Assembly: GCA_044892505.1 (NCBI GenBank) | Contig: CM097883.1 | Span: 172,670,001-172,734,000, forward strand | DNA from: Schmidtea nova | Taxonomy: Eukaryota | Direction of reading: 5' to 3' | Length of the DNA: 64,000 nucleotides | In this document: piece after piece, positions 37,505 through 62,375 of the stretch | How the letters are laid out: the number at the start of each line of letters is the position of its first letter | Numbering within the stretch: the first letter of the stretch is position 1 | Translations under genes and position numbers: made by a program | The notes under the pieces: generated by a model | Databases searched by the model: none | Told to the model about the DNA's origin: nothing | What the model saw: only the letters and a program-made list of their open reading frames with translations

Positions 37505-37966
37505 GCTGACTGGAAAACCCAGCAGACCATGAGATTCGATGGGAATAAAATGAAACCGGTTTGTTAAGACAGGTAAAGTGGTAAAGACGCTAGCTGGAAA
37601 ACCCAGCAGGTCAATGATAACGATCAGGAAAGATCGAGATAACAAAAGTGAGTAATAATAAAGTGGTGAAATTGAGGACGCTGACTGGAAGACCCAGCAG
37701 GTCAAAAGTGATGATCATCGGAGTAAAGAGCAGGTAAAAGTCGACAGTGAAGAGATAAAGGATGGATAATAAGAGCGCTGACTGAAAAAACCCAGCAGGC
37801 TAATGAAACGACAAGTGAGGTCGAGAATAATGAAACAGAAGTAAAAGGTGAAATTAAAAGCGCTGACTGGAAAACCCAGCAGGCTAATGAGATAATGAGT
37901 GAAGTTGAGAGAAATAAAGTCGAGATAAAAGGTGAGATTAAAGGCGCTGATTGGAAAGCCCAACAG
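37505..37966 (+). repeat. Six regularly spaced copies of a 21-nt hairpin motif GCTGACTGGAAAACCCAGCAG
   Basis: Starts at 37505, 37589, 37680, 37777, 37862 and 37946 (period 84-97 nt). Confidence 0.92.
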
Positions 37967-38531
37967 GCCAACGAGAGATGTCAGTTGAATTAAAGGTGGG
38001 TGGAGATGAGAATTGAAATGAAGTAGTAAACGTAGTGTGAATAGGAAATAAAGCGAATAGTCGAGAAACAGAGTAGTCGACAGATAAGGGGAAATTAGAA
38101 CTCAGAGCCAGAGAAGCCTGAGAAAAGTAAAGGGGATAATAAGAGCGCTGAGCGACAAAGTAATTGGGGAACTGGGGAAAAGTAATTGGTGTATTTGATA
38201 AAGAATAGATAATTGATGCGACTGCATAGATAATTTAAATAGACTTAAAATCAAGGGAAATGGGAAAAATGGGGATCTTCATGAATTATGACTACACCCG
38301 TGAGAGGGACGAGAAACACGATAACGGGGACGTATCGTGTAAGTGATTATTTGTTTTAAGGAAACAAATCAATCAAGCAATTCAAAGCAATCTAGCAGTC
38401 AGAGCAATCAAAGGAAACAAATCAAAGAAGAAGCAAAGCAAAAGCGGAGTAGAAAATCAGTTGAGAATATAAGAAATTGAGGAATAGACAAAATTGAGGG
38501 ACGAGAAACAAGATCAGGTATAATACCAATC

Positions 38532-44500: not shown

Positions 44501-47500
44501 TTTAGAGAATAAAAGACAATTGAGACCAGATCATAAAGAAAAACGAATAGAGATGAGAACCACACCAACAGTGTTGATAACCACAAATCAGGATGTGGGC
44601 ATGAGATTCATAAAAGGGAAAGCAACCCTTAAGTGCAGTACAACAGTATACGAAACAAACTATCCAGGAATATACGTGTCGAAACAAGAAGTGCCGAATG
44701 CGAAACCCAAAATCGACACAATGGATATCAAGCTACACTTGTATGTGAATAATAAAATGGATTTCTTATTCCATAGAGGACAAGCCTCATTGCAAAAAGT
44801 GTACTATGATCTGATAAACAACGATTGTATACTGAACCGGGAAATATTAAAGACAAAGTTGGCCGTAGCGATTACGAATCCAGATAGCGCGATGCCATTA
44901 TTACCACTGAGAGAAGGACATTTCGGAAGAGTAGTCGGAGAAGCAATGTATGTATACATTTGCGAAAAGACACACGCATCGCTAGCAGCAACAACGCAGT
45001 TGAAACCTGGACAATGTACAAATGAATTAGAAATCGATTATAAAGGAAAAGTACGATATGTTCAACCGGTGACGAGAATCATCAATCCACCAGGGTTTGA
45101 ACCAAATCCATTCAACTGTAGTAATGCGTACGGACCGCTTTATCAGAAGCCAGATGGCAAATGGGTCATGTTCCCAGGAAGAACCGAAGTATTAGCACCA
45201 AGAGAATTTGAGCTAATGCAGTTGTCAAAAGATAGACAGTTCAGTGACGTAGATGTCTCAAACAACGGAATCTATAGTCCAAAAGACTTAGAAGCGGCAA
45301 GGCAGAATATACTATTCCCGGCAAGAAGAGAAGCATTACTGTCAAATATCGTAACGATAACGGGAGGAACGAATTATCGAGAAGGACCGAATTACGAACT
45401 GTTGTTGTCACCGGCACATTTCAAGAAGGCCACAGAAAATATGATGAAGGCAATGTGGGGAAGATTCCTGATATTTGGACAAATGATGGCTGGAATACTG
45501 GGAGTGATATTGATAATACAAATCGTCAGAGTGATAATAACGCAAATGTTAGCGTGTTTCGACATCTACAAGAGAGAAAAGAAAGTGAATTGGAAAATGG
45601 TAGTAGGGTTTTTACCATTCCTTGCGAAAACGATGGTGTTACACGGACACTCAAAAGACATACATCGAATAAAGAGGTTGTTGAAGATACTTGCAAAAAT
45701 GAAAGGAACTAACGAAGATGTCGGAAGGAAATTCAAAAAGATAATGCAAGATGAACAAGCAAGGCGACAACTAAAGAAAGAAAGGAAAGGATTATGGGAA
45801 AGAGTGAGAGGATATAGAACACAAGATGATTCAAGTAATGATGACGATGATGATGACGATCGAGGAGGACAAGCGAATATAAACCAGATTCCACAATACA
45901 CCGAAAAGAGTGCAGTTGAGAATTGGAGATACAGCGCTCCACCTCAGTCAATGTATAACGAACCGATATACAAAGCGAAGCCGAATATGATGCAGATGAT
46001 GCCGATGACAAGTATATACCCGATAATTCCCGAAGGATGCAAAGTAAAACGAGGTAAAAGCGTAGACTCGTTGGAAGACACGCACACGATAGCGGTTATG
46101 TCCACAAATATGGGACCAATCTTAACAACAACCGTAGAAATAAACGGAAGAGAAATTGAAGCTATGATCGATACAGGCGCGAATATTTCGGCAATCGACA
46201 TCAATTATATACCAGAGAAAAACCAAGGAGAAATTGAGAAGACGAATGTTCATGTAATCGCGTGCAGTCAGGAGACAGTAGAAGTAGCCGGAAGATGGTT
46301 TGTAAAAATTAAGCATCGAGGTGCAGAAATCAACACGTACATCGCTGTAATACCATCGCTGAGTGTACCATGTATTATTGGAACTGACCTGATGCCAGAC
46401 CTGTTCAAGGAGATTGTAATTGACCTAGGAGCAATGAAACTAAAAGATAGAACAGGAAAAATCTGCAGAATGAAAGTTAAAGTGGCAAGTGCGGAACAAA
46501 TAGTAGTGCCAGCGAGACATGAAATGATGTGTTATGTCAAGATCGATTCAACAATAAAGGGAGATATGGTATTCGAACCAAGTAAGAAGTTCGAAGCAAA
46601 GAAAGAATTACCAATGGCAAGAGAATTGGTTACGATAAACCAAGAAGGTGAGATACCAATTAATCTGGTAAACTTCGACGAAGAGGACAAGATAATATAC
46701 GAGAATGAGAATTTGGGTAAATTGACACCCATGTCCGAAATCGAGATACCAGACAAGAACGAGAAAAGCAAAGACGAATTACCATGGAAAATCGACAGTG
46801 TGTTGTTAGACGAGCGACAAAAAGAACAGCTACAGAAACTGTTGATGGAATATAAAGATATATTCGCAGCATCAGATTTAGATCTGGGAACATGTGACGT
46901 AACATTACACACGATACCGTTGACGGACGAAACGCCAATAGCATTACGACCATACAAATTGGCAGAAGCTCAAAAAGCAGTGGCAGAAGAAGAGGTACAA
47001 AAGATGTTAGAGGCAGAGGTCATCGAACCTAGTTGCTCACCCTGGCAATTCCCAGTGGTGATGGTGAAAAAGAAAGATGGAACTCAAAGATTCTGTATCG
47101 ATTACAGACGATTAAATGCCGTTACGAAAAGAGACACGTACCCACTGCCAGACATAAATGAAATGTTGTTGACGTTACAAGGAGCAGCTTATTTCACGTC
47201 ACTAGATTTAAAGAGCGGATATTGGCAGATCAAAATGAAAGACGAGGATAAAGAAAAGACAGCATTTACAATCGGACGAGATCTGTACCAATTCAAGAAA
47301 ATGCCGTTTGGGTTAACAAACGCGCCAGCATCATTCCAGAGATGCATGAATTTCGTAACACATGGCATAAAACAATGCATGGTGTATATCGACGATCTAT
47401 TGATCTACTCCGCAACATTCGAAGATCACTTGCAAGACATCAGAAATGTGTTTGTGAAATTGAGACAGTGGAAACTGAAATTAAAGCCGTCAAAGTGCGA

Positions 47501-50500
47501 TTGGGCAAAAGAGAAAGTGACATTCTTAGGTCACATCGTATCAGCAAAAGGAAAAGAACCAGATCCAAGGAATATCGAAAAGGTCAAAGAATGTCCACCA
47601 CCAAAGACAGTGACTCAAATACAAGAATTTTTGGGATTGTGTGGATATTATCGAAAGTTTATCAAGGACTATGCAGGAATATCAAAGCCAATGCAAGAAT
47701 TGGTAAGACAAGATGTGTCGTTTGTATGGGGAGGAGAACAGCAAGCAGCATTTGAGACATTGCGAGACAAGCTGATTACAGCACCAATACTGGTCCATCC
47801 AGATTTTAAGAAGCCATTTTTGTTGGCAACAGATGCAAGTGGATACGCAGCAGGAGCAGTACTAGGCCAATTTGACGAAGAAGGCAAGGAAAGAGTAATC
47901 GGATATTACAGTCGAACCTTCAGGAAGCATGAAAAGAATTACTCAGTCACGGAAAGAGAAGCCTATGCAATAATATTGGCAATCAAGCATTTCAAATACC
48001 TATTGTGGGGTCATGAAATATATATCACGACGGATCATCAACCATTGATATGGTTAGGTCAACACAAAGAATCATCAAGTAGATTGATGCGTTGGGCGAT
48101 GCAGTTACAAGAATACTCACCGTTCATAAAGTTTAAAGCAGGAAAAGCAAATGCAAACGCAGATTGTATGTCAAGATTTACATTCCCAGAATTGGTGAAC
48201 CTAAACGCTCTGAAAATATGTGCATTAATAGCGGAAGATTTGGATTTCAGCGAACTAAGGAAAGATCAACTCGAAGACGAGGAGTTGGGATTGATCAGCA
48301 AGTATTTGAAAGAAAGTGAAATAGAAATATTCGGCAAGAACCAAACGTTGCGCGAACATATGCAGAAATATCAGCATCGATACGTGATAGAAAAAGGATG
48401 GTTATTGATACAGGATGGAGAACGGAGATTGATGTGCTTACCTGCGAATAGGCGAAAGGAAATCATGACTCAATATCATGACGGAAAATTAGGCGGACAT
48501 ATGTCAGCGAAAAAGACAATCGGGAGACTGAGACAAAAGTACTTTTGGCCAACCATGGAAGATGATGTGAAAGAATGGATAAAGAACTGCTTAACCTGTG
48601 CAACAAGAAAGAACGTCGGAACAAAGTGGAAAACACCACTAAAACCAATGCCAATACCTGCAGAACCAATGGCAACAATAGCAATGGATGTAGTTGGACC
48701 ATTGCCGGAAAGTTTGAAGGGAAATCAATACATATTAGTAGTCACGGACTATCTAACAAAGTTCCCAGAAGCGTTCGCAATACCGGATCAAAAAGCGAAA
48801 ACAGTCGCGAGAATATTGGTGGAAGAGATATGCTGCAGATACGGAACACCAAAGAAAATCCTAACGGATCAAGGAACGAATTTCATGAGTGAAATATTAG
48901 ACGAAGTTACGAATTACTTCCGAATTGCGAAATTACGAACATCCCCATACCATCCACAAACGAACGGTCAAACGGAAAGATTCAATGGAACATTAATACG
49001 CATGTTGTCGAATTACGTCAGCAAACACCAGACTGACTGGGACGAGTATATAAACTTGTGTTTAATGGCATACAGAATGTCAATACATGCGGCAACAAAG
49101 CTAAGTCCATTCCAACTGATGTACGGAAGAGATTGCAACTTACCGATCGATTTAGAATACCAACCACCATTATCACAGTATATGGAGGTTGACGATTACG
49201 TTACAAAGTTCAAAGAAAGAATGCAAGAGATCTGGAAAACGGCGGAACTGAACATCAAGTTCTATCAAGAAAGTTATAAGGATCTACATGATCAGAAAAG
49301 GAACGTGAAAGCACATGATTTAAAAGTTGGAGATTGGGTGATAATCGAAACACCAGAGATAATACCCGGTACGGTCAAGAAACTCCAACGACCAGGCAAA
49401 GGGCCATACGAAATAACAACAGTAAACGAAAATAATGTGCGAGTACGATTGGTGAACAATCCATTGGTAAGACCAATATACGTGAATGCATGTCGATGCA
49501 GAAAAATACCCAAGACAGCAACTCTATCACCAGAGAAACGGGTGATGACAAGATCACAGACGGCGAGAATTAATATGTTGCGAGTACAACAAAAGCCGCA
49601 ACCAAGTCTAGAAGACAACCGAAGAGAAGCAATAGACATCAAAGAACTGGCAAAGAGGACCAGAGAAATTATACCAGAATGGAGATGGTGGCTCGATTTC
49701 AATATACTGTCAGAAGTGCGGAAGAATGTAATGGAGTATGCAAAAGACAGAACAGCGCATCCAATTACAAGAACGTTACTGGAAGAAATCCCTCAAACAT
49801 TGAATTTACAAGATAAAGACGGTAACACAGCGTTGCACAATGCAATCAAGCACAGTGGGAACGAAAAAGTGAAAGAGATCGTAGAGATGATACTCGAAGG
49901 TGGAGGAGAAATTGACAAAGTAAATTGGGAAGGAATCACTCCACTCATGATGATGACAATTCACGGAAGAAACGATGAAATAATCAAACTATTCGGAAAC
50001 ACCAGATCGAATTGGTTGACAAAAGATAAAGAGGGACGAACATTCTTGAATCATGCAATTGATAGAGCGAATCACCGAATACTGAAGTATATTACGGAAA
50101 ATGCCACGTGGGAAATCGATGAACTAACTAGAGGATCAATCATGAAACAAGCAATCAGGGTAAAGAACAGTAAAACCTGGAGAATATTGCTAAAGTGGAA
50201 ACGACCAGAAGGAGATTCGTGGGTCATGGATTGTAATGAAGTGTTCATAAAGGGAGAAAATGCGCTACTGAAACATTTATTAGAAGTAACATACGATCCA
50301 AAAACACTTGCAGTATTAATAGCAAGAGATACTCTACGGGTCAGCGAGAACCCAAGAGAATACAAGTTGGAAGACAGAAAGAAAGAACTATTCGGATTAA
50401 TCAAGAAATGGTGTGATAAGCAATGGAATCCGGATATGAGCTTCGAACATTTCTATGACATTCAAAAGCAGCACAAAGAAATAAGCAAGAGATATAAAGA

Positions 50501-51977
50501 GCTGGTGGAAGCATTGAAGTATGGACAATTCTTCAGACAAGCAGTGTATCAAGACCAACGAATGAAACAGATGCAAACGCGAATAAGAAGCAAAGTAGTG
50601 TTGTTCAATGCAAAAGCCGAGTACCAAGAGAGATTAGACGCAATCGTAGCAAAAGCACAAGAAAGATTATCGGAATTCAAGGAGAATAAAAACTCGTTGG
50701 AGATACTAGGAGCGATTACAGAAAAAGTGCACAGATATGCACAAGGGGATTATAACGAGAGCGACATAGAAACGATCAAAAATCAAATGCCAGTGGCATT
50801 CCTATTATCAAAGGATGGGAGATTGCCGATACACTGGGCATTACGCCGAAAGAAAGAAAACGAAGTGCTAGAAATAACGAAAGCAATGGTCAAGTGCGAA
50901 GCAGACATGAATACGGTTGACGATAATGGAGACACAATCATGATAATCGCAGCAAGAAAGAAGACGAAATTGAAAGTACTAAACGAGTTATACGAAGTAG
51001 GAGCAAAAATCGAAGGGAAAAATGGAAAGAATAATTCCATCATAGATATCGCAATACAGTGGAACAACTTCGAGATGATCAAGTTCATAAAGTCCATCAA
51101 GAAACAGGGTGACATCGAATATCTGGCGAATAACGTAAAGAATTTCAGTCTAACTGTAATGATACACGACATAGAGAAAACGAGAGCATTACTAACATGG
51201 GTGAATCCGATCACCAAGGAACCAGCGTTCAAGATCAATGACCATATGGAACAGAATCAGAATTGGTGTATCAGAAGCGCGTTACTAAGACACAAAAAGC
51301 CAGGGATAGTAGAAGAATTCCTGAAGAGAAGGGATTTGAAATTTACGAACAATCCAAAAGAACAGGAACGAACGGGAAGATGGAAAGACTTGTTCAGAAA
51401 ATATGTGAATGAGTGGGCAAATGCCAAAGAAAAGATCAAGCAAAGTAGACTAGAGGACATAGAACCATCCAAAGATATGGAAATACGGGAATTCGAGTCT
51501 AGCACACTCGCGGTTCAAGCGTATGAAAGATTGATTAAAGAAATTAATGTCGAGGACGACATTTTCAAAGGACCAGGGGGTGGTTACAGAGACTTCGACA
51601 ACAAAAGTAACAACGAAAAGAACAACGAAGACATTGACAACAAAAGAACAGAGGATAATGAAAAAGAAAGACAAGAAGAACCAAAGCCAACGGAAAAAGA
51701 CAAGAAAGGGGAAGCCGAAGAACGAGAAAACAATGGAACAAAAGACGAACGTACAAACTATGGAAAACGAACAGGAAGTCTACTTTTGAGACCGGAAATG
51801 TTGTGTATTGCGATATTGATAACAATCATCGGACAAGGAGAAGCCAAGAAACAATACGTCACGCTAGAGATAATCAGAGGAAACGAAGTATACGAAAGAA
51901 TATGCTGGAAAGAAAACCTGAAGAAAAACGACACGCTGAAGTGTATATTGTCAGATCTGAAGCGAGACGTCATCTAA
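38532..51977 (+). CDS. 4,481-codon Gag-(accessory)-Env-Pol-ankyrin polyprotein
   Basis: Gag capsid-like about 38886-39357; three CCHC knuckles 39561-39713; AT-hook 43071-43094; signal peptide about 43725-43790; Cys-rich glycoprotein 43791-45460; TM 45464-45550; DTG 46170; RT YIDD 47385; RNase H TDAS about 47830; IN HHCC 48474-48600 and DDE core to about 48985; ankyrin repeats 49800-50100 and 50811-51095. First ATG is at 38844. Confidence 0.95.
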   Translation: MTEAERKAAKRTRTGNKPKQQKNKQVEISDNSSNKENQEETPEDPEVRNEVETIDSELVRENRTRSESRDNETESSEEEESNSETSGELEAKKTSTVFQDSGIGMSEHREDLREKFKGEPFNGDASRLDTFLKEFGIFVDICGWSAETLANRIPLYLKDSALDLYIEKRSGSNPPRTWEEIKEFFQQTFGINKVLNEAFDEFSARKQRRNESNAVYASELRKLAKLAFNRGSPVDEELMTALFVRGLRRPDIRAQVGCKGCKTVDEALEAANLFELHMAMNDMRITAVMGKTTEDEEQGKRNMNQSIPHSQRLFKEPPARKNNGYITVNTSGGNSYNDRQNRQCQTCGKNGHWQQDCFQNVACKLCGQKGHSENRCYGKTCYTCGKTGHMSKDCNQQRSWANSGNRPNYGNRPSYGNQGQQRNNPNSSANEASMKEAKLRQEVSRLHEIIESMAKGSQQAAQPKINMIQLIEAEAERENRESQQKHNQEWARIRREEEQVRQQRLQQLKNGNPRINMMRAMMEEKQQDESDELEVKEKRNEEQKKEEVNQEIETAEQSKKDEETEKEANQEEEVRIKQRGMIVIMPNDHWFRFKYDVKEEVGRLFKKVNEMIPGVMKLPREAFLQTEDLPEVKLKMTDIWEDMGVTETKINVMIIREVEPEKIPPPVKHQTRISRIFKGKIRRRRLEEIDELEKRMGKAEITGNENELIQEVSKNEARPTAHIGMLRHPRQELSDEEDDSEVSSLVGDMLKEPENEDKKMEVVETIETMSVKEEEIQKLMDNALEVIHNEEFIDGKRYRKFIRAVWQTKYKEWLQEREVRVIQEFIEKLLKEPLNEYVIQIWINECSPRIWIRNPMTDGIYRWVEDRLGSSYQDKFIYSENGLVKKGTHMIDTGIWPGEITTLSICNTKKEENLQGIVKEANTCYEMRIKPQLMEAKERILAENLNTMIEQIIQQIKKHRKELTKNEYENLKQCIENIRDTSQTRHSNFKTDKLIAKMGKEMFKRGEISDLMITVRLPNEETRQIEVIPDSKVGEIVDVINETILQREREDEFEDDIAIKYKEHLLNERDERRAYKIGIWDNFQTIHVIRMDDVPRATPRDEERKKKRQEDVMRKLRQIVEIYRNWQMKPEWETILGELDLNRRRLTPVEKQWDNKEKCWKVKRGVYEEDPEGEDRYERNTKRICMVTRRLLPTDLDGPETAVIWAELEKQKTSELIELLRGNTRGKRQTIKGLAQFIISNGEDITNLRKVTKAIAEYKRVNEWCPEQLDDVIKKWRNKEFAEETPQKIHLRIMYPNQRKEEFWVMLTEKVKSIKEKLMYELPFHLQHQGRSLDNKLEIWLTPVQLDLMNTLTVAQIVGQPLKFKEEKKAKGSMSTPSPMKSTMTPGISSGQARTTPIKTRERTPPEAYDVDEILTDSDEAIEELTKLTQKPTANIFDRIIEMPITSPAEIDDQGVEQEVVIEMVNDSEDEQEQPQFTQEMERWLEQRANEGRDVTEETGRATRFVETGTGMEKRPRGRPKIDPATTIPKTREERRQEQWEICLRKLDKIAEIRGKEENQVCQGEEWLTKTIMDVLAIIDPELKNLWRINEPSTKARMLHNAIAPIMPELIKAKTKSNHLDWQGTTMLIKRLLNGAETDSKYLVAISYTIYNLLTLSRGSPKSSPMGRHIKNTAMIIEKEIEPYILRKGGWEKFIKENQTKEGSNVMRKKLEGVLREMENRQTMQGNGRSTLNLNSIIMMMLVWLLSTESVTTFEVFDCDQMKLGEKYSLRGTEQCKDATPVELKEIKKEQWYHVYQEAELIKTMVNECKVQKTRFAFYCGRGHYSAIVMPGTEREPIVLQGEDCEALFKHGEVTTRDKIKIRGKPGMMLQQTYYVAGRITGGEGYCQGETYPIFGVPATNLVVMDTYIVELKSYEAFFEPTTGEMKTLSMCKIDRSMCQTGMSTLVYKPKVNECQLQLLQGAKFDEIQGKTFQEEDDDDKARAKHLKEALENKRQLRPDHKEKRIEMRTTPTVLITTNQDVGMRFIKGKATLKCSTTVYETNYPGIYVSKQEVPNAKPKIDTMDIKLHLYVNNKMDFLFHRGQASLQKVYYDLINNDCILNREILKTKLAVAITNPDSAMPLLPLREGHFGRVVGEAMYVYICEKTHASLAATTQLKPGQCTNELEIDYKGKVRYVQPVTRIINPPGFEPNPFNCSNAYGPLYQKPDGKWVMFPGRTEVLAPREFELMQLSKDRQFSDVDVSNNGIYSPKDLEAARQNILFPARREALLSNIVTITGGTNYREGPNYELLLSPAHFKKATENMMKAMWGRFLIFGQMMAGILGVILIIQIVRVIITQMLACFDIYKREKKVNWKMVVGFLPFLAKTMVLHGHSKDIHRIKRLLKILAKMKGTNEDVGRKFKKIMQDEQARRQLKKERKGLWERVRGYRTQDDSSNDDDDDDDRGGQANINQIPQYTEKSAVENWRYSAPPQSMYNEPIYKAKPNMMQMMPMTSIYPIIPEGCKVKRGKSVDSLEDTHTIAVMSTNMGPILTTTVEINGREIEAMIDTGANISAIDINYIPEKNQGEIEKTNVHVIACSQETVEVAGRWFVKIKHRGAEINTYIAVIPSLSVPCIIGTDLMPDLFKEIVIDLGAMKLKDRTGKICRMKVKVASAEQIVVPARHEMMCYVKIDSTIKGDMVFEPSKKFEAKKELPMARELVTINQEGEIPINLVNFDEEDKIIYENENLGKLTPMSEIEIPDKNEKSKDELPWKIDSVLLDERQKEQLQKLLMEYKDIFAASDLDLGTCDVTLHTIPLTDETPIALRPYKLAEAQKAVAEEEVQKMLEAEVIEPSCSPWQFPVVMVKKKDGTQRFCIDYRRLNAVTKRDTYPLPDINEMLLTLQGAAYFTSLDLKSGYWQIKMKDEDKEKTAFTIGRDLYQFKKMPFGLTNAPASFQRCMNFVTHGIKQCMVYIDDLLIYSATFEDHLQDIRNVFVKLRQWKLKLKPSKCDWAKEKVTFLGHIVSAKGKEPDPRNIEKVKECPPPKTVTQIQEFLGLCGYYRKFIKDYAGISKPMQELVRQDVSFVWGGEQQAAFETLRDKLITAPILVHPDFKKPFLLATDASGYAAGAVLGQFDEEGKERVIGYYSRTFRKHEKNYSVTEREAYAIILAIKHFKYLLWGHEIYITTDHQPLIWLGQHKESSSRLMRWAMQLQEYSPFIKFKAGKANANADCMSRFTFPELVNLNALKICALIAEDLDFSELRKDQLEDEELGLISKYLKESEIEIFGKNQTLREHMQKYQHRYVIEKGWLLIQDGERRLMCLPANRRKEIMTQYHDGKLGGHMSAKKTIGRLRQKYFWPTMEDDVKEWIKNCLTCATRKNVGTKWKTPLKPMPIPAEPMATIAMDVVGPLPESLKGNQYILVVTDYLTKFPEAFAIPDQKAKTVARILVEEICCRYGTPKKILTDQGTNFMSEILDEVTNYFRIAKLRTSPYHPQTNGQTERFNGTLIRMLSNYVSKHQTDWDEYINLCLMAYRMSIHAATKLSPFQLMYGRDCNLPIDLEYQPPLSQYMEVDDYVTKFKERMQEIWKTAELNIKFYQESYKDLHDQKRNVKAHDLKVGDWVIIETPEIIPGTVKKLQRPGKGPYEITTVNENNVRVRLVNNPLVRPIYVNACRCRKIPKTATLSPEKRVMTRSQTARINMLRVQQKPQPSLEDNRREAIDIKELAKRTREIIPEWRWWLDFNILSEVRKNVMEYAKDRTAHPITRTLLEEIPQTLNLQDKDGNTALHNAIKHSGNEKVKEIVEMILEGGGEIDKVNWEGITPLMMMTIHGRNDEIIKLFGNTRSNWLTKDKEGRTFLNHAIDRANHRILKYITENATWEIDELTRGSIMKQAIRVKNSKTWRILLKWKRPEGDSWVMDCNEVFIKGENALLKHLLEVTYDPKTLAVLIARDTLRVSENPREYKLEDRKKELFGLIKKWCDKQWNPDMSFEHFYDIQKQHKEISKRYKELVEALKYGQFFRQAVYQDQRMKQMQTRIRSKVVLFNAKAEYQERLDAIVAKAQERLSEFKENKNSLEILGAITEKVHRYAQGDYNESDIETIKNQMPVAFLLSKDGRLPIHWALRRKKENEVLEITKAMVKCEADMNTVDDNGDTIMIIAARKKTKLKVLNELYEVGAKIEGKNGKNNSIIDIAIQWNNFEMIKFIKSIKKQGDIEYLANNVKNFSLTVMIHDIEKTRALLTWVNPITKEPAFKINDHMEQNQNWCIRSALLRHKKPGIVEEFLKRRDLKFTNNPKEQERTGRWKDLFRKYVNEWANAKEKIKQSRLEDIEPSKDMEIREFESSTLAVQAYERLIKEINVEDDIFKGPGGGYRDFDNKSNNEKNNEDIDNKRTEDNEKERQEEPKPTEKDKKGEAEERENNGTKDERTNYGKRTGSLLLRPEMLCIAILITIIGQGEAKKQYVTLEIIRGNEVYERICWKENLKKNDTLKCILSDLKRDVI

Positions 51978-51986
51978 ATCAAAGGA

Positions 51987-53723
51987 TTGGAGAAAGAAAA
52001 GTCATACATAATATGCGCAATAAAGCAGAGAGGAGAACCAAAAGCACCTCAAGTAACTGCATGTCAATTATATAAAGCAACAGAAGCGCTGAAAATACAG
52101 AAATGGATTGAGAAAAGAAGCGAAGAGACAACGAGAAGAACAGAAGTGGAACCAGAGAAAGGGAAGAATCAAACCGAAGCAGAAGAGGGAATCAGAAACC
52201 GAACAGAGAAAGAAAGAATAACCAAAAATCCAGCGGGCAAATTAACATTCCAACCAGAATTGATATGTGTAGCATTAATATTAATCCTCATTAAGAGAAT
52301 CATGGAGGACATAGATATCAGCGTGATGACGTTAGTAAACATCCAAGATCAACGAACAACGAATGGAAGATGTTGGGGACGAAACAATGAGGTAATTGGA
52401 ATCAGCGAAACAAGAGAAATAGTAGAGGCGGAGACAAATGAGGAAATAGAGATAACTGAAATGGAGGCAGATAGAAAATGTGAACTATGTCTCATGGAAA
52501 AAGCAGCAAACGGAAACAGACCAGGAACAAGCGAGTGTAAAGTGTTCCAAGCAAAGGAGATAATTGAGTTCCCAAAAAGAAAGAAACAAGATCAAGAAAT
52601 GATTGCGAATGAAGTAGTAACAGTAGAGATGAAAAACATTGGTCGGAGAACAATTGGGATGTGTTGGAGAAAATACATCGGAGTATCGACCAACAACATA
52701 ATACCGCAATGTAGAACGAGAGAACGAGGAATCCCGTTTCAACTAAATGGATTCGAAGTCGGACAAGCATATGAAATTTGCGTAATCCGGAGAATAAGAG
52801 AAATAATACAAAGAAGCCTGGAGTGCAAACTGTACAAGACGCCAGAGCAAATTAACGGAACGAGAACGATTGAAATGGGAAGAAGTCGACAGAGGAAAAG
52901 AAAGTCAAGAAGAATCACGACAACCAACAGTCAAGGAACTCAACAGACAACAACAGAAGGGACGACAATAGAAAACGAACCGGAATCAACAACGTTGATA
53001 ATATGGAAGATCCATAAAAAAGTCCTAGAAATCTGTTGGACATTAATGCCAAACAGTATGGGAAAGTCCCCACGAAACTGTCAAAAGACATCAAATGATA
53101 AAGGAGAAATAATTGAAGTGGAAATGAGGAAGTTGAAAACAAACGCAGAATACGAAGTGTGTGCAATCGAAGAAGTAGATGCACAAGGAAATCCACAAGA
53201 AAGGTGCGAAACCTATTACACGCCAAGGAACATAACGATAAAAAGGGGAACCCACAAGTTAGTATTCCGAGAATTGAGTCAGAAAAGAGAACAAACAGAG
53301 ACGGAGGAAATACTACAAAATCAACAAGAAAGATGGGAACCCGAGAAAGTGATCGAAGAAGTCAGACAGAGACAACAACAATATGAACAATGGGAAGCAG
53401 AATGGAAAGGTCAATATGGCGTGATGACAAACCAAAGTGAAACTCCGAAGATGAGCATTGGGAAAACAATAATGGGATTAATCAGCATGGGAGTATTCAT
53501 AGGGTGTATACCACTGATAACGATCATGATAGTATGTTGGAGATATGGCATGAGAAATAAGACCATAGCAGTAAAATGGCCAGACGTAAAGGTCACGAAC
53601 TACAACATAAAACTACCAAAAGCAGTACGAGAAGAGCTGAGAAGACGATCAAAACATGAAGAGATGTGGGTACAGATCGAGGACGAGGAACTGTACGAAG
53701 GAAAACCAGTGGTGATTGTATAA
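51987..53723 (+). CDS. Membrane protein with FN3-like Cys-containing repeats; in frame with the polyprotein across a single TAA
   Basis: Repeated CW...L..L....Y.IC.I....C..Y.T pattern. Hydrophobic segments LICVALILILI and IMGLISMGVFIGCIPLITIMIVCW. 51987-38532 is a multiple of 3. Confidence 0.7.
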   Translation: MEKEKSYIICAIKQRGEPKAPQVTACQLYKATEALKIQKWIEKRSEETTRRTEVEPEKGKNQTEAEEGIRNRTEKERITKNPAGKLTFQPELICVALILILIKRIMEDIDISVMTLVNIQDQRTTNGRCWGRNNEVIGISETREIVEAETNEEIEITEMEADRKCELCLMEKAANGNRPGTSECKVFQAKEIIEFPKRKKQDQEMIANEVVTVEMKNIGRRTIGMCWRKYIGVSTNNIIPQCRTRERGIPFQLNGFEVGQAYEICVIRRIREIIQRSLECKLYKTPEQINGTRTIEMGRSRQRKRKSRRITTTNSQGTQQTTTEGTTIENEPESTTLIIWKIHKKVLEICWTLMPNSMGKSPRNCQKTSNDKGEIIEVEMRKLKTNAEYEVCAIEEVDAQGNPQERCETYYTPRNITIKRGTHKLVFRELSQKREQTETEEILQNQQERWEPEKVIEEVRQRQQQYEQWEAEWKGQYGVMTNQSETPKMSIGKTIMGLISMGVFIGCIPLITIMIVCWRYGMRNKTIAVKWPDVKVTNYNIKLPKAVREELRRRSKHEEMWVQIEDEELYEGKPVVIV

Positions 53724-53847: not shown

Positions 53848-54198
53848 ATGAATCAAGAAACCACAGAGATGTCGATGATGACAAGATGGAAAGTACAATG
53901 TGACCTGCTAGCCAGAACAGTAAATGAATTACAGAGCCAGTTGACGGCAAAAACGCAATTATTAACCGAGAGTTATAACTGTAATTTTGAAGCGATGAAC
54001 AAAATCGAGATCCAACAAATACAGATAAACGAATTACAGAACGAGAATCGAACATTAAATGAAGTAAACAATTGGCAAGCAGAGGAAATTGACCGATTAA
54101 CGAGACATGAAGAAGAAGAGATACCGGATAGTTGGACGAGCTGGATTGTAAATGAGATAGACGTGTATCCAGAGCCAGATTCAACTGAGGATGTATAG
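53848..54198 (+). CDS. Small coiled-coil protein with acidic tail, unknown function
   Basis: 116-aa ATG ORF with heptad-like Q/E/L content, bounded by short intergenic spacers. Confidence 0.55.
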   Translation: MNQETTEMSMMTRWKVQCDLLARTVNELQSQLTAKTQLLTESYNCNFEAMNKIEIQQIQINELQNENRTLNEVNNWQAEEIDRLTRHEEEEIPDSWTSWIVNEIDVYPEPDSTEDV

Positions 54199-54287
54199 TG
54201 AATAAGCGGAAAATTGTGTAAATACGTGTAAATAAAGAACCAGAAAAATCAAAAATATGGGGAAATTGATGTAAATATTGTTGTAGA

Positions 54288-55700
54288 ATGAGAGCAGAAA
54301 GGGAAGCAGATTACCAAACGATCGAGATTCTAAGAAGAGAAAATCGACAATGGGGAGTAAATGTGACGTGTGTAAAGTGTAAAAATCTACTGTTAAAACC
54401 GAGACAAACGGAATGTGGATGCAGGATGTGCACCAAATGTATATTACAAATAATCAGTGAAAGTGAGACAAGAAAGTGTCCAGAGTGTGACGATAAACTA
54501 CTGATCAACGAGACGAAACCAGATAAAGCAATACAAAAGGAGATCTGGAAGATAAAAACAGAATGTATAAACCAACCATGTGAGTGGAAAGGTCAAATAA
54601 TCGAGCTAAGACAACATCTGGAGAAATGTGAAAACAAGAAAGCGATATGTGAAAAGTGTCAACAGACAATAACCATCAAGCAGTCGAAAGGTCACAAGAA
54701 TGAGTGCAAATCAGAGATAATAGAGTGTCAATACTGCGAACAAAGAGAGACGAGAGAAGTAATCGAAACAGAACATCTCAACGTAGCAGAAGAGAAAGTG
54801 TGCGGAAAATTCAGAGGAATTTGTCCAAGTAATTGTGGAACCGGAGAAGAAGTGATGTTGAGAGAACATTGGGAACAATGCGAATCAAGACCAAGAAAGT
54901 GCGTATGGAGTAAACAAGGATGCGTAGTAAAGAAAACAAGCAAAGAAATGAAAGAACATTTAGAAACAGAAACGGTACAACACGCCGAGATGTTAACAGC
55001 AAATTTGAACGGAATGGAACAAACCATACAGAAACTGGGAAAAGAAATTGAATCTCAGAGGATAATGACGGAGTTATTACTGGAAACGAGAGAGCAATTC
55101 GAGCTCACCAGAGAGAAAATGATGGAGAAAATCAAAGTCATAGAGACATTGGTAAAAGAAGTAAACGTGCGACATCAAATGTGGATACGAGATACAGAGG
55201 ATATCGAGAATTTACCTGTTGCACCATATGTATGGAAAATCAAGAACTTCAACGACAAGTTCGCAGCAGCAAAAGCAGGAAGTCAAGTGTCGGTAACAAG
55301 TCCACCATTCTATCTGTGGAAAAATGGATACAAAGTTCGAATGAGAATTTATCCAAATGGAGATGGATCAGGAAAGGAAACGCATGTGTCATTATTCTTT
55401 GCGTTGTGTAAAGGTGGTTACGACGACATATTAGAATGGCCACTAGAAACAAAGGCTATAATGAGAGTGAGAAACTCGAAAGAAACAATAGCGAGAGTAT
55501 TCAAAATTGATGGTAAGCACGAAGCTTACAAAAGACCAACCACAGAATGTTCATTAGCGACTGGAGAACCAAAATTCATACCACACCAAACAATGTGGGA
55601 GATGTTGTACGACGACAACCTATACGTAGAATTGGAAATCGAAAAGAAAGCAAGTACAACAGCGATGAACACGAAGTCAACGAAAGGATGGTTAGAGTAG
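54288..55700 (+). CDS. Full-length intronless TRAF-family protein (RING, TRAF zinc fingers, coiled coil, MATH)
   Basis: CVKCKNLLLKPRQTECGCRMCTKC..CPEC; CEWKG....LRQHLEKC; YVWKIKNF..SPPFY..GYKVRMRIYPNGDG.GKETHVSLFF..KGGYDDILEWP. Most like TRAF2/3/5. Confidence 0.93.
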   Translation: MRAEREADYQTIEILRRENRQWGVNVTCVKCKNLLLKPRQTECGCRMCTKCILQIISESETRKCPECDDKLLINETKPDKAIQKEIWKIKTECINQPCEWKGQIIELRQHLEKCENKKAICEKCQQTITIKQSKGHKNECKSEIIECQYCEQRETREVIETEHLNVAEEKVCGKFRGICPSNCGTGEEVMLREHWEQCESRPRKCVWSKQGCVVKKTSKEMKEHLETETVQHAEMLTANLNGMEQTIQKLGKEIESQRIMTELLLETREQFELTREKMMEKIKVIETLVKEVNVRHQMWIRDTEDIENLPVAPYVWKIKNFNDKFAAAKAGSQVSVTSPPFYLWKNGYKVRMRIYPNGDGSGKETHVSLFFALCKGGYDDILEWPLETKAIMRVRNSKETIARVFKIDGKHEAYKRPTTECSLATGEPKFIPHQTMWEMLYDDNLYVELEIEKKASTTAMNTKSTKGWLE

Positions 55701-55789: not shown

Positions 55790-56950
55790 ATGGAAAACGC
55801 AAATGAATATGTAATCGAAGAGGAAACGAGAAACGAGATGTCAAACGAACAAGAAGCAATCGAAAGAGAAATCGAAAAGAGATGTAAAATGGAAGTGGAA
55901 CAAAGAACCAGAGAATTACACGAAGTGATGACAAACAATTTCTACGAGAAACTAGAATGCGAACGACAAATGGAGTTATATCAACTAGAACTCGAGGAAG
56001 TGAATAAAGAGATAGAAAAACTGACAGCCCAAATGGAGAAGCTAAAAGGAACGAATGTACGAAGTCGACAGAAGATAGAAGAGACCTATCAGCTGATGAG
56101 AAAACAAGCAGAACATTACAAAAACATGATGAAAATGCGAAGAGAAGAGAGGGAGAAACAAGAGGAAAAGATGGAGGTAAAAATACTAGCTATCAAGGCT
56201 CAAGCGAGACATTGGAAGATGGAGTCTAAACGAGTGTATAAAGAAGCCAAAGAGATAATCAGAAAGACAGCATACAGCGAAGATTGGAAACTGTATCAAG
56301 AGATAGACGAATTGAAAGAGGAATTGGAACAGAGAAAGCGACAAGAACAAGCAAACAAAGAATGGAGTCGAAAACGACAGCGATTTATTCGAGAACAAGC
56401 AAAGGAACTAAAGAAAACGCAATGGCAAATACAGATGATAAATGGAGAAATGCGAGGTATCAGACAGAAAGAGGAAGCGGAAAGACAAAAGTTGATCAGG
56501 GAAAAAGAAAGTCTGGAAAGAGATGTAAATGGTTATCAAGGGGTGGTGACCCAAAAGAAAATGGAGTTGAAAGCAGTAAAAGAAAGACATGCGGAATCAA
56601 ACCGAGCTTACGAGGAAAACATAACGAACTTGACGAAAGAAAACGAGGAGCTGAAACAACAAATAATAACCCTGAAAGCAGAGAAAGAAACCATAGAAGT
56701 ACAAACCGAACCTACAGAAGTAGAAGCCCTGAAGAGAAAAGTGGAAGAGATGGAAAGACAAATTGAAACTCTAAGCGAACAATCAGATTACATGGAGTAT
56801 CTGTTAGATGAAGAGATACAAATCTCTCGAACGTATCAAGACGAAATTGCAATGTGGAGAAGTAGAGTGGTGTGGTTACCGTTTATACCACCACCACCAA
56901 TGGAGCTCCAAGATGAAGGGTTCCATGAACCAGAGGAGACGGATGTGTAA
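55790..56950 (+). CDS. 386-aa long coiled-coil protein with a C-terminal PPPP motif
   Basis: Continuous E/K/Q/R-rich heptads; ATG ORF. Confidence 0.7.
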   Translation: MENANEYVIEEETRNEMSNEQEAIEREIEKRCKMEVEQRTRELHEVMTNNFYEKLECERQMELYQLELEEVNKEIEKLTAQMEKLKGTNVRSRQKIEETYQLMRKQAEHYKNMMKMRREEREKQEEKMEVKILAIKAQARHWKMESKRVYKEAKEIIRKTAYSEDWKLYQEIDELKEELEQRKRQEQANKEWSRKRQRFIREQAKELKKTQWQIQMINGEMRGIRQKEEAERQKLIREKESLERDVNGYQGVVTQKKMELKAVKERHAESNRAYEENITNLTKENEELKQQIITLKAEKETIEVQTEPTEVEALKRKVEEMERQIETLSEQSDYMEYLLDEEIQISRTYQDEIAMWRSRVVWLPFIPPPPMELQDEGFHEPEETDV

Positions 56951-57023: not shown

Positions 57024-57548
57024 ATGATCTGGCTCAAAACCCTATCAATCCTAACGATTATGTTAGCTACAACAATCATGAACCTTTCGACAACCGAAAT
57101 CCAAAGAACCCTGTCAAACGAGATATCCCAAGAGATTGAAAAACAACTAAACGAAGTCAGAGAAGACTTGAAACAATTAATACGACAAATGCGAATCAGT
57201 CATGATCATCGCAAACCCTTGCAAACCCTATTCAATCAAATTGAGAAGATCCGAGAAATCCATAAAACCTTTCAAGATCACCTAAAGCCAATCAAAGGTC
57301 AAACCCAAATCGAATCCGAAATCCGAAACAGATGGATCATCGTCGGAATAGTCACAATGACAATATTGACAATCATCCTGATCATCGTGATTACCTATAC
57401 CCTATATCGAATCAGAAGCCTCAAACAACAACAAACGATAATGTGTAGATGCGCTAAAAGAGAAGCAAAAACCCAACAAAGGATGAGAAGTCATCTACGA
57501 CAAATTCAAGCCCGATACGAAATGCAGTCAACAAGTGAAAGGACCTGA
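57024..57548 (+). CDS. Small type-I membrane protein (signal peptide, helical ectodomain, TM, basic tail)
   Basis: MIWLKTLSILTIMLATTIM signal-like N-terminus; WIIVGIVTMTILTIILIIVITYTLY TM segment. Confidence 0.7.
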   Translation: MIWLKTLSILTIMLATTIMNLSTTEIQRTLSNEISQEIEKQLNEVREDLKQLIRQMRISHDHRKPLQTLFNQIEKIREIHKTFQDHLKPIKGQTQIESEIRNRWIIVGIVTMTILTIILIIVITYTLYRIRSLKQQQTIMCRCAKREAKTQQRMRSHLRQIQARYEMQSTSERT

Positions 57549-57750: not shown

Positions 57751-60700
57751 TGTTGGGCCAGCCAAATCGAGCAGCATCTGAAAATAATACACAATCAATA
57801 AAATAAATTTACAACAGAATAACAACAAAATAAATTACCAACACCAAAGCGTAACAAAATAGGCGGCAACATCTAAAAGAAATAAAATATAAATCAAACA
57901 ACAAAAATCTTCAAAACTCACTCATGCGAAGCAGAAAAAATTGGAATATGACAGCGCGTGGGCGGATGTCACCAAAGACCTAAAACAAAAATAAAATAAA
58001 ATAAATTGATGACTAAGAAAAACTTACCGCATGATTAACCAAACAAATCGGCAAGTTAAGTTAGGCACCAAAAAGCCGGCAACACAAAATAATGAATCAA
58101 ACATACACACATACTCGATGCTGATTGGCTAACCAACAACACCGGTTGAGTATAAATACTGAAGTAAAATCAGTATTTGACAATGTCATTTTTACTGAGT
58201 GTGAGTAACAGTAGCAACTTGTAGACAACTTGTGAAGCAGTAAATTGGAATAAAAGGTAATTTCGAGTTGCATTCTTATTGATTTAAACCCTCATAATTT
58301 TCATTGTTAATCATGATAAAATCCATAAGGTTTCCCGGAGGCCTAACAGCCTGACGGATTCTTGGGGCCTCTCAGCGCAACACAATCTTTCGGTTGTGAG
58401 GTGCTGATGCGGCGGGACCATAGGTGTTCTAAATATTTAACAAGCGGAAGGGGGAAGGGCACATCGGATATCTCATGCCATCGCAACATCAGTATGGGTA
58501 GAAGCGATTGAAGGGCGTATCATCCGTCACGACAACATCGAGTACATGGGTTTACATAAAAGAAGTGTTGATAGACAAAAGTGTTCAGCGTTCGTGAAGT
58601 CCAGTAGAGTAACGACGGTTTGGTGCAAAGGGTTAGTATGGAGATATACACTACATAGGTCAGGTGAGTTCGGAGGCTGACAGAGCTAGCGTCGGAGTAA
58701 AACCATGAATCCACAGGATGCCCCAACATATATACGCCTCACGAAGGGTACACAGGATAGTCCCACGAAATATAATACGAGCACAATCTGTACCCAATTA
58801 ACCTGAGTAAGGGGTCGAACAAGTTCCCCGGATGATGTGACCATTGTTAATTGAAAATGAGGTATGGAGATAACACCTGAGATGCGAGTGAGTATGATTG
58901 CTGTAGATATAAACCAAAATGGTCTCTGAAATGATGATATTCAAACATAATAAATGATCAAGTGATCATCATAAATGAATACAGATCGTCATAAACTACA
59001 CTGAATTTTTGCGTGGCCAAACCAGTTAAGCAACTTGACATAGTGAATACACTCAACCACATGACGATAACATACAACCTACCTACTATCTTGAACATCG
59101 AACCGATCTAACACTGAAACACCAACGGCAACCTACAGAGTTTTACTCTTGAGTCGAGTAGGTCGCCGATTATAAATAATTGCATGCACCTAACCAATTC
59201 ATCACAATCACATCTTCTTGTCTTCAGAAAAATGATCAAGACCGAAGAATATCAAAGAAGTCCGAGCACCTATCGACAGATGAAAATGGAAGATTATGTC
59301 GGCCGGGAACCACGACGCATCCGTTCCGTCGTCCGGCCAAGGAGGTTCCCTACCATCGAGGGAGAAGTGGAAGCCCCACGCAGAATTAGCGAAACTGCGC
59401 GTCGCCACCTACGACGGTGGACAAGACACCATATGAGTGCAGCCGCAGATGTTCCGGCTTGCGCCTTCACGATACAATTACGATGGGAAGGAGACCCCGA
59501 TTGGATGTCCACCATGGACCCTGCCGAACCAAGGACCGATAGATGGTTCTTCCAATTTCTCGACGAGCAGAGACGACCCCGCTGGGTATTGAGCAATGGA
59601 ATGATGACCGGAAGGGCTCTTTTCCAATTAGGATACCTGCTGCTAGACAGGCCTCGGTGTCGCTACACTGAGGAAGTCTTCACTTATTCCAATGCACCAG
59701 GAAGTGTTTCCGTAGAACAACACCCCGAGCCCAAGGAGCTTCACCTCTGGGAGGTGTTTATCTACAAAGATAAGCTGAGTTGGACCCAGCCCCAGAAATG
59801 TATTGGGAGAATGGAATTCGTCGCGACGAGCATCCTGCCGATCAGGAATTGAGGACATTCAGTTGATTGATACCGAGAAAGAATGATTGTCTTAGATATT
59901 GAAATATATGTATTGGTGTGTGACGGTCTTGTTTTGTTTTGAGTGCATGAGAACAACCTAAGGATAAGGTAGAGTTGTTTAATGACGATAGGATGACCGA
60001 AAAATCAGACACATGACATATACTAACATTAATGATATATTTACAGACATGACGGAAACCAAGGGCAGAGATTTCAAGCAAGAGGCGCGAGAACACAAGG
60101 CGCGCTCACGAGTCCTGGAGAATCGATTAAGGCAGCTGAATGAGGAGCATCAGCGGATTAAGACTACATGGTTTAACCCAGAGCGGGTTAAGTCCATCCT
60201 GCAGGCTAGGTACAGGGCAGAACGAGTAGCTGAGGAACATGCCAGAGAGATTGCAGCCCTGAAATTAGAGTTGGCGAATTATTTGAAGGTATCGACTCGC
60301 GACTTCATTACCGAACAACTACGCCCAGTGATCAGAGCTAGCACCTTTAATCGATGGATAGACACGATAGCGGTGACCACGAGCACCCAAACAGAGACCG
60401 ATACCATCGCAACCACGACGATCGAATCAACAATGAAAACTCCAGCCGGTTCGAAACGAACAAAGAGGAGGAATCGCTTAGGAGCGAAAAAGCGCAGGGA
60501 AAGACGCGCATATGCAGATCGCGTAGGAATAGAGGTAGACTTGCTCAGTGGTCTATCTGAGCAAGAACTACTAAATGTAATCCGACCCTCTGTATTATTA
60601 AACCATAAATAAATGTATGAAACGAATGACTTGACTTGTTTTGTTTGATTGTGGAATGTTTGAGAATTGAATGTAGATAAAACCCGGATTCATTTAAAGC

Positions 60701-60997
60701 TGCAGATATCTAAAAAGTACATTACCCTAGGACACTAGAAAGGAGCATAAGTGGGACCGAAAGAAAGCCACAGACACCTTCTATCGGTAGTGGTGGACCC
60801 GTGAATAAACAAGGGAATAGTAGCCGAAAGGTTGCTCACCTGCCTTGTCATTTCACAACGTTGACACAGCACCAACATGATGAGTAGTTAGGGATACATC
60901 ATGGGTGTCAGCGGGGGAATGTTTTTATGTTGGCGAGATCACCCTAACATATAAAATCATAAGGATCTCAGTTGTCAATCTAACCAACACACCAGCA
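57751..60997 (+). repeat. 3' LTR of the giant element
   Basis: Direct repeat of the 5' LTR, followed by the TSD AGTA. Confidence 0.97.
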
Positions 60998-62375
60998 AGT
61001 AAGATATCTCAGTTCATTTTTTTTTCAATTTGCTTTGACGAAACGACCGACATTTCAGCAACTGCCCAGTTGGTAATATTTATTCGAGGTGTAGATAAAT
61101 ATTTTAACGTTACAGAAGAATTGTTAAATGTGGTGCCAATGAAAGATTCAACGACTGGAACAAATATTTTTGACGTTATTATTACTCAGTTGAATATATT
61201 CAAAGCAGATTTAAAAATATTAGCAGGGAGTAACCACGGATGGTGCACCATCTATGCGCGGTTCTAAATCTGGCGCTGTTACTTTGCTTTTGTCAAAAAT
61301 TCGAGAATTGAACGTAAATTGCGATGTTATCGATATTCATTGTTTAATGCACATTGAAAATGTATGTGGAAACACTCTTGATATGAAAGCTGTAATTAAT
61401 TTTGTCATCAGAACTGTTAATTACATTCGCAAAAGTGCTCTTCGACATCGAAGATTCAAAGAATTTTTTAACTTCAGTTGAAGAAGCAGAAGGTTCCGAT
61501 GTAATTTACTACACAAACGTAAGGTAGCTAAGTCATGGAAATTGTTTAAAAAGATTTTTTTGATCTTCGAGAAGAAATCAAAACTTTCATGGAATGTGAA
61601 GAACAGGATATTGAACAATTATCTGAAGACGAATTTATTCTTAGCCTTGCATTTTATGTTGATATAACGAAATATTTAAATGAGCTCAATGTTAAACTTC
61701 AAGGCAAGGATTCGACCATAGTTGACATGTATAAATTTATCAGATCATTTGTAGATAAGTTGAAATTATTTAAAGATCATTTGTATAAAAACCAATGGGA
61801 CCATTTCGAAGCAATTAAATCAGTACATATTAATGGCAAAAATACAAAAAAATTTGCTACTGATATAGAAAAATTGATAGTTGAATTTAATGAACGGTTT
61901 TTAAAATTGTTTAGTTTAAAGCACGATATCGAACTATTTTCGAATCCATTTTCAGTTGAAATAAATTCAGCAGACGTCAAAATTCAGCTGGAATTGTTAG
62001 AACTGCAAAATGATTTGTCAGCTAAGCAGGCATTTTCAGAAAATAAAAGCAATTTCCTAAAAATTTACTTAACTGAAACTAACTATCCAAATATAAGAAA
62101 TACTTTTTTAAAGATTATTTCTTTATTCGGAATAACGTATAACTGCGAAAGATTTTTTTCGGGATTAAAATATACAAAAAATTCTTATAGAAGCAGATTA
62201 ACTGATAACAATTTAAGAAATGAATTAAGAATTTCAAATACGAGATTAGATTATAATGTAAAAGAATTAATTTAAATAAAAAAATTAAATTAAAAATTGT
62301 GTTTTTTTTTGCGGCCAGTATTTTTATTTTTCGTAAAATTTTGGCCATTCATTCCATGATCTTTGGGCACCCCTA

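Follow-up and report, generated by a model that had tools for sequence, protein, structure and literature searches.

What would an LTR retroelement gain from a gene for a complete TRAF protein? The question is raised by a stretch of 64,000 nucleotides of the Schmidtea nova genome (hereafter, the window), in which a TRAF reading frame lies within a giant Ty3/gypsy element. Giant Gypsy-like elements of planarians, known as Burro or GYPSM1, are already described as carrying a MATH_TRAF_C cargo, either in the polyprotein or in an accessory ORF (PMC6431247). The locus asks whether a whole TRAF gene belongs to such elements, where it came from, and what it might do for them.

The element and its TRAF gene

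The TRAF-bearing element occupies positions 31680-60997 of the window (29,318 nt), which confirms the placement of the gene inside an LTR element by an earlier reading of the letters alone (hereafter, the sequence-only reading). Its two LTRs differ at one of 3,247 nucleotides and are flanked by a target-site duplication; the insertion is very recent and has split a hAT transposase (Table 1). According to Pfam, the polyprotein contains Gag CCHC knuckles, a Monjiviricetes-type fusion glycoprotein, protease, reverse transcriptase (RT), RNase H, integrase, and ankyrin repeats. In the window copy this frame is ended by an in-frame stop (51975-51977), and the frames of sibling copies run for 5,076-5,114 codons. 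Repeated FN3-like units in the 581-codon continuation are a lead only, with Atlas scores below 0.9.

Downstream of the polyprotein stands a cassette of four ORFs (116 aa, the TRAF, 386 aa, and 174 aa) with spacings of 73-125 nt. The 386-aa protein matches no known family, and the ESM Atlas likewise gave none; its E-[TS]-x-V tail, which resembles a class I PDZ-binding motif, recurs in all five TRAF-bearing families described below (the window copy and loci L141, L182, L186, and L190). The RING of the upstream accessory ORF presumably resembles those of IAP proteins. Both LTRs carry two ORFs of their own (dN/dS 0.26 and 0.10), whose dS of 0.7-1.0, against about 0.2 in the internal genes, corresponds to divergent LTR types on near-identical interiors. 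Fragments of other mobile elements are also present in the window (Table 1), and no tRNA genes were found within its 64 kb.

Table 1. Features of the window, by position
Feature	Positions	Strand	Description
Small Gypsy element	5105-9677	-	104-nt direct repeats; gag, PR-RT-RH, and IN in three frames
piggyBac-type transposase fragment	23313-24341	-	DDE_Tnp_1_7 (Pfam)
Polinton-type fragment	29411-30667	-	DNA polymerase B / endonuclease VII (Pfam)
hAT transposase, left part	31190-31679	+	Spin-doc zinc finger; the element is inserted into it
Target-site duplication	31676-31679 and 60998-61001		AGTA, 4 bp
5' LTR	31680-34926	+	3,247 nt, TG..CA
ORFs in 5' LTR	33113-33781, 33942-34541		Copies also in 3' LTR
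Upstream accessory ORF	35466-35924	+	152 aa, C-terminal C3HC4 RING (zf-C3HC4_3); also one in family B; dN/dS 0.22
Leader between RING ORF and gag	36600-37180 and 37500-37980		Tandem 19-nt repeats and 84-nt repeats
Polyprotein frame	38481-51977	+	4,498 codons, first ATG 38844
In-frame continuation past the stop	51978-53723	+	581 codons; predicted transmembrane segment; dN/dS 0.22
Cassette ORF 1	53848-54198	+	116 aa, predicted coiled coil, no known family; dN/dS 0.057
Spacer before TRAF	54199-54287	+	89 nt; TGTA words, one AATAAA, acceptor-like TTGTAG 1 nt before ATG
TRAF ORF (cassette ORF 2)	54288-55700	+	ATG 54288 to TAG 55700, 470 aa, single uninterrupted frame; C4C4 RING ~aa 28-67, TRAF zinc fingers ~90-230, coiled coil 229-306, MATH ~312-452
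Cassette ORF 3	55790-56950	+	386 aa, coiled coil, conserved acidic tail ending E-[TS]-x-V; dN/dS 0.116
Cassette ORF 4	57024-57548	+	174 aa, hydrophobic N-terminus, coiled coil, predicted transmembrane segment; dN/dS 0.158
3' LTR	57751-60997	+	3,247 nt; 1 mismatch to 5' LTR
hAT transposase, right part	from 60998		Dimer_Tnp_hAT frame 61550-62275

The sequence-only reading described a complete TRAF with RING, zinc fingers, coiled coil, and MATH domain, and each of these parts was recovered by Pfam, PDB sequence matches, AlphaFold2, and Foldseek. TRAF-mep_MATH (E 2e-25) and MATH_2 (E 4e-27) score above the Pfam cut-off, TRAF3_RING (E 1e-4) and zf-TRAF (E 7e-5) below the curated one. Among solved structures, the C-terminal part matches best the TRAF domains of TRAF5, 3, 1, and 2, and the N-terminal part the RING-zinc-finger fragments of TRAF6, 2, and 5 (E 1e-8 to 1e-12). 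The AlphaFold2 model (mean pLDDT 84.3, pTM 0.39) places a continuous 78-residue helix (229-306; pLDDT 86-93 across most of it) before the MATH sandwich, and Foldseek ranks TRAF3, 1, 2, and 5 first. The features of the TRAF family are thus present: a C-terminal TRAF-C/MATH domain, a coiled coil (TRAF-N) directly before it, and a RING with eight zinc ligands together with TRAF zinc fingers. These ligands are C28-x2-C31...C43-G-C45-x2-C48-x2-C51...C64-x2-C67, with Cys where most TRAFs have His.

The receptor groove is less canonical. In comparison with TRAF3 and TRAF5, the window copy retains hot spot 3 (R353, Y355) and the Phe residues of hot spot 1, its serine triad reads H-E-A, and the Cys of hot spot 1 is replaced by Glu. 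The triad also varies among families (H-E-A in A, A-S-T in B, T-S-T in D, and A-V-T in E). The three hot spots that characterize the receptor-binding class of TRAF1/2/3/5, with the serine triad for Px(Q/E)E, are therefore not all found in the element TRAF; since the triad and the hot-spot-1 Cys are not kept, canonical Px(Q/E)E binding cannot be assumed and the partners may differ. In base composition (A 0.425, T 0.185) the ORF is close to the element polyprotein (A 0.39-0.43), and unlike both the flank (A 0.355, T 0.362) and the host TRAFs (A 0.32-0.40, T 0.26-0.34).

Copies, selection and origin

With the TRAF as query, at least 90 scored matches at 95-100% identity were obtained in this genome, 85 of 90 without a stop (best 90 of 3,291 candidates). 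With the RT as query there were 113 matches at 98-99% (family A, that of the window copy) and 37 at 95% (family B). Every fifth of the first 100 RT matches was taken as a sample of family A (20 of 113), and TRAF sequence lies downstream in 19 of these 20 copies (12 open, 2 with stops, 2 frameshifted, and 3 cut by deletions). Both LTR ends and a matching 4-bp target-site duplication are present in 12 of the 20; the 11 LTR pairs compared are 99.07-99.94% identical. In family B, 10 of 10 copies carry the TRAF at the corresponding position, and its protein shares 53% identity with that of the window. Families D, E, and F, found by searching with other TRAFs, encode proteins 46-52% identical to that of the window and 43-78% to that of B. 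In each of the five families the gene is flanked by homologues of the same neighbours, and none of the eight RING ligands is missing. Full-length copies listed, assigned to families by identity and frame length, number at least 90 in A, 87 in B, at least 92 in D, 92 in E, and 3 in F, at least about 360 altogether. The TRAF is therefore no peculiarity of the window copy.

The gene also persists where the replication enzymes are missing. In family E, RT, RNase H, and integrase are absent from 12 of the 20 sampled copies, in which the protease passes straight into the ankyrins, yet the TRAF is kept; 4 others have RT-RH-IN, 4 are uninformative, and 17 of the 20 show no stop in the projected TRAF frame. 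Such copies form a multi-copy non-autonomous lineage (L181:1493-8464, L183, 12 of the 20 loci L207-L226 in family E, and L185 in family F) which keeps gag, an env-like domain, protease, and the TRAF cassette, with dN/dS values of 0.03 for the protease, 0.13 for the ankyrins, and 0.20 for the TRAF, i.e., purifying selection. A sixth family, C, has a MATH domain only, inside the polyprotein and with no RING before it, and lacks the first three cassette genes; its downstream ORF (L191:5063-5758) terminates in ETLV. This MATH domain may or may not share an origin with the full TRAFs: they group at 89/94 with protein P0002 inside, and the AU p value for the five element rows alone is 0.44. The relatedness of modules is itself in conflict: the ankyrin region of the window copy is 79% identical to that of family F and 44-48% to those of B, D, and E (38481-53723 against L185, L187, L193, and L181), whereas the env module is 79-81% identical to B and E and 65% to F, which suggests recombination between families. 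At one locus (L063:1027-4938) a deletion has joined the MATH domain of the TRAF, in frame, to a polyprotein truncated where RT begins.

Pairwise comparison of the RT-picked copies and the window copy gives a TRAF dN/dS of 0.094 (95% bootstrap 0.068-0.125), against 1.08 and 1.51 in shifted-frame controls. By region, the values are 0.027 for the RING, 0.104 for the zinc fingers, 0.089 for the coiled coil, and 0.112 for MATH, and no amino-acid variant of the RING is common to more than one copy; RT-RH and integrase in the same copies both give 0.020. A tree-based GY codon model yields an omega of 0.122, 300 log-likelihood units above omega = 1. Variants shared between copies comprise 47 non-synonymous and 111 synonymous changes, against 70 and 71 for singletons (site ratio 4.2:1; Fisher p 0.0006), the pattern expected if replicating lineages are selected and copies decay after insertion. 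An earlier value of 0.081, from the top 30 TRAF-ranked copies, was biased by picking on protein similarity and is superseded by the RT-picked set. Values for other families are 0.16 in B (10 copies), 0.11 in D (25), and 0.20 in E (20), those of D and E coming from TRAF searches and being less independent. The TRAF is thus a fixed accessory gene under purifying selection in the element lineage, and neutral evolution does not describe it.

With regard to origin, a MATH profile search of this genome gave 150 rows, of which about 77 are element copies, as assigned by frame length and score and checked in part. Most of the others lie at 405-455 Mb of C2, where a large cluster of host TRAF and short MATH genes was observed (L031-L060, L068-L072, and L077-L078), some in tandem at 4-5 kb. 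The sequence-only reading had singled out two features of the element TRAF, the Cys in its RING and its lack of introns. The Cys is indeed present, but it is not special, since the RING reads C-G-C in 8 of 8 host loci with a readable RING and in the named Dendrocoelum TRAFs as well; a His-to-Cys change specific to the element is ruled out. Of 155 database proteins, 19 have Cys and 84 His at this position, and 52 lack a readable RING. In the same way, full-length host TRAFs are single open frames with balanced A/T, so that the lack of introns is not special either and cannot be taken as a trace of retro-capture. Both are lineage traits, common to host TRAFs, and the A-rich bias is the mark of the element.

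The nearest named full-length relatives are planarian TRAFs, at 31-34% identity, which points to a triclad host. A tree of 35 rows unites the element TRAFs of the five families in a single clade (100/99), which is nested in a planarian-type group (96/92) and has proteins P0006 and P0037 as its sisters (98/98). None of the 9 host rows falls inside the element clade, and several pair with TRAFs of other planarians; in this tree the element rows deviate in amino-acid composition (a warning of the program), and three long or RING-degenerate host rows were left out. Among the 9 or 22 host rows of two trees there is no host-type locus that descends from the element clade, and no one-to-one host sister of the element TRAF was found in this genome; the short MATH proteins of the C2 array form another clade. 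The simplest reading is that all five families likely go back to a single old capture from a planarian TRAF. The long residence proposed by the sequence-only reading agrees well with the A-rich composition and with five families at 43-78% identity in one clade. Its suggestion that mobile copies inflate the apparent host expansion holds in part: element copies would indeed outweigh the host genes in a count made from the genome sequence, but the expansion of TRAF/MATH genes in the host consists of separate clades. An expansion of planarian TRAF/MATH genes is reported from transcriptomes (PMC6109357), and elements do not explain it in this genome.

Expression and possible function

The sequence immediately upstream of the TRAF points to splicing. 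Each of the five families has TTGTAG 1-3 nt before the ATG, and YAG occurs 1-4 nt before it in 123 of 126 locus reads (some copies being fetched twice), against 12% of all internal ATGs. The four family-A spacers contain 14 TGTA words, against 1.9 expected and a maximum of 8 in 5,000 shuffles, and AATAAA is found in 2 of the 4. In flatworms, operons resolved by a spliced leader (SL) are described as same-strand genes less than 300 nt apart, with the leader joined at the downstream acceptor (PMC12582326; PMC8629364); the cassette spacers, which have acceptor-like sites, fall within this distance. The TRAF is likely expressed from a spliced RNA through the conserved acceptor, and either cis-splicing from the leader or SL trans-splicing would fit the spacer; no LTR element with SL trans-splicing was found in the literature. 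Two other candidates were discarded. The best-looking splice donor, at 35041 after the primer-binding site, differs in context from copy to copy and cannot be clearly matched in family B, and the copy at L080, without a spacer before the TRAF, has a junction unfit for GT-AG removal and is read as a deletion. In four sequencing runs of unrecorded kind, coverage was flat and the rows listed had neither joints nor loose ends at the acceptors, which speaks neither for nor against expression.

As to function, the reading given slightly better than even weight is that this is the complete accessory TRAF of a giant envelope-bearing Ty3/gypsy (Burro-like) clade, working as a RING-intact ligase or adaptor of the TRAF2/3 type with a cell-autonomous pro-survival effect. 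The protein, made from the predicted spliced RNA, would trimerise through the coiled coil and MATH domain and be recruited to host stress or immune signalling complexes; its putative pro-survival output would keep the element-expressing cell alive. The benefit would fall to whichever copy is active in that cell, and selection could thus act on a diffusible protein even in copies without RT and integrase. The RING, as the most constrained part, argues for an active ligase or scaffold and against a classical RING-less decoy. RING-less TRAFs behave as dominant negatives. The pro-survival output is proposed because host planarian TRAFs are needed for survival, their RNAi being lethal and raising cleaved caspase-3 (PMC7586133), and because BIR and BCL2-like motifs are reported in Burro elements (PMC6431247). 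In the polyprotein of the window copy, Pfam finds neither BIR nor BCL-2 domains, and a BH2-like word is seen by eye only. Counted against this output are two reports: silencing BURRO1 by RNAi brought no rescue of the smedwi-2 knockdown (PMC8532177), and ISKNV ORF111L, the sole viral TRAF with a tested effect in the literature consulted, is pro-apoptotic (PMC3352826).

A second reading concerns immunity. An antagonist that enters host TRAF complexes, or that ubiquitinates or degrades a sensor or adaptor, would damp a TBK1-centred response to foreign nucleic acid; we consider this possible, if improbable. In planarians, TBK1 restrains the expression of transgenes and induces homologues of TRAF2/3/5 (PMC13563047), the receptor groove departs from that of canonical TRAFs with the coiled coil conserved, and the element encodes ankyrin repeats along with a fusion glycoprotein of viral type. 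However, a purely passive decoy would need no RING, the serine triad is also unconserved in host planarian TRAFs so that its loss is not diagnostic, and, according to the same report, clear NF-kB/IRF3 homologues were not identified in S. mediterranea. A search of this genome for NF-kB (RHD) gave no match, but neither did the control queries, so that this result is uninformative. Moreover, antagonism overlaps the pro-survival reading if TBK1 acts by killing cells. A wider version, in which a spliced signalling cassette (full TRAF ligase, coiled-coil partner ending in a PDZ-type tail, and membrane proteins) would override the host TBK1/TRAF response to foreign nucleic acid, is put forward as a rather improbable speculation. 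The company that the TRAF keeps may instead hint at the element's own cycle, since it is always accompanied by the same three ORFs: it would scaffold or ubiquitinate element proteins (coiled-coil or membrane ORFs, Gag, Env) for assembly or release, or cause death for release as the iridovirus TRAF does through caspase-8 apoptosis (PMC3352826). A QDE word is invariant in the tail of the 386-aa neighbour, this tail fits Px(Q/E)xxD in families A and F, and copies without RT and integrase retain gag, env, protease, and cassette. We hold this unlikely, since the motif Pro is Gln in families B, D, and E, and family C does with a polyprotein MATH alone, without RING and the first three cassette genes.

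The two remaining explanations place selection outside the element or deny it. Host domestication, by which an element-borne TRAF would be kept to supplement host TRAF function, could appeal to the essentiality of host TRAFs (PMC7586133) and to the hundreds of open copies. It is nonetheless very unlikely, because copies decay like other element genes, 7 of 19 TRAF copies are broken, singletons are much richer in amino-acid changes than shared variants, and the host rows of both trees include no locus derived from the element clade. A recent one-off capture carried as a neutral passenger has next to no probability: dN/dS is 0.09-0.20 in four families, the frames are open in proteins that share 43-78% identity, and the gene has fully taken on the base composition of the element.

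Known systems and consequences

The element agrees with Burro/GYPSM1 in its size of about 30 kb, its multi-kb LTRs, a single polyprotein of about 5,000 aa with Gag CCHC knuckles and ankyrin repeats, a mononegavirus-like env in frame between gag and protease, and the order PR-RT-RH-IN (PMC6431247); the assignment as Burro-like follows this published architecture. Burro1 has its MATH inside the polyprotein, as in family C. Section 7 of that paper names only MATH_TRAF_C, in the polyprotein or an "upstream" accessory ORF, and contains no selection analysis, phylogeny, or copy counts; here a complete RING-ZnF-CC-MATH gene belongs to a cassette of four genes that follows the polyprotein (in 10 of 10 copies of family B), and the upstream ORF encodes a RING protein. 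Of the cargo reported for Burro, MATH and ankyrin were found in the window copy; BIR, BCL2-like, ubiquitin-like, and dUTPase-like domains were unmatched by Pfam in the scanned segments (HHpred was used in the paper). In 14 of the 37 sister-family rows there is a frame of 5,140 codons, the ORF1 length of the second published Burro element, which on this match may belong to the clade with a full TRAF.

Host planarian TRAFs (Dendrocoelum lacteum TRAF-2, -4, and -5, Dugesia japonica TRAF2-like A, and Smed-TRAF-1/2 and -2A/B; PMC7586133) share with the element protein a compact architecture, a C-G-C RING, and a single open frame; the element TRAF differs in its separate clade and A-rich composition, and the element TRAFs are about 30% identical to host TRAFs. 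Vertebrate TRAF2, 3, and 5 (PDB 1kzz, 4gjh, and 1ca4; PMC6125299) have in common with it the RING, zinc fingers, coiled coil, TRAF-C fold, hot-spot-3 Arg/Tyr, and hot-spot-1 Phe, but the element RING is C4C4 and not C3HC4, the zinc-finger region is shorter, and the triad and hot-spot-1 Cys are lost. The TRAF homologues of megalocytiviruses offer a viral parallel, as host-derived TRAFs that act on host death signalling; in ISKNV, ORF111L is pro-apoptotic through TRADD and caspase 8 (PMC3352826). Unlike the element gene, they belong to fish DNA viruses, measure 206-296 aa for the named matches in BFVD, show 18-24% identity, and represent an independent capture.

Four points are absent from the published accounts found: a complete TRAF gene with its RING located after pol, the selection that acts on it, the single origin of the gene in the five families, and its persistence in copies that have lost RT. 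The literature search gave nothing on TRAF cargo in Burro elements beyond PMC6431247, and figures or supplements of Jurka 2007 and Grohme 2018 may already show a full TRAF ORF. An annotation remark on TRAF-C in Burro thereby becomes a testable claim, that of a complete TRAF selected in the element lineage. From a practical point of view, genome-based counts of planarian TRAFs need care, as only about twelve full-length host loci were seen against at least about 360 full-length element copies; work on host TRAFs by means of probes, RNAi, or read mapping should likewise be checked against element copies. Selection on the TRAF within the element lineage makes it likely that these elements interfere with the survival or immune signalling of their host, in the manner of large viruses. 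If the cassette does override the TBK1/TRAF response, it would be a retroelement analogue of the immune modulators of large DNA viruses, kept even by RT-less derivatives, and would offer a natural means of probing the barrier to transgenesis in planarians.
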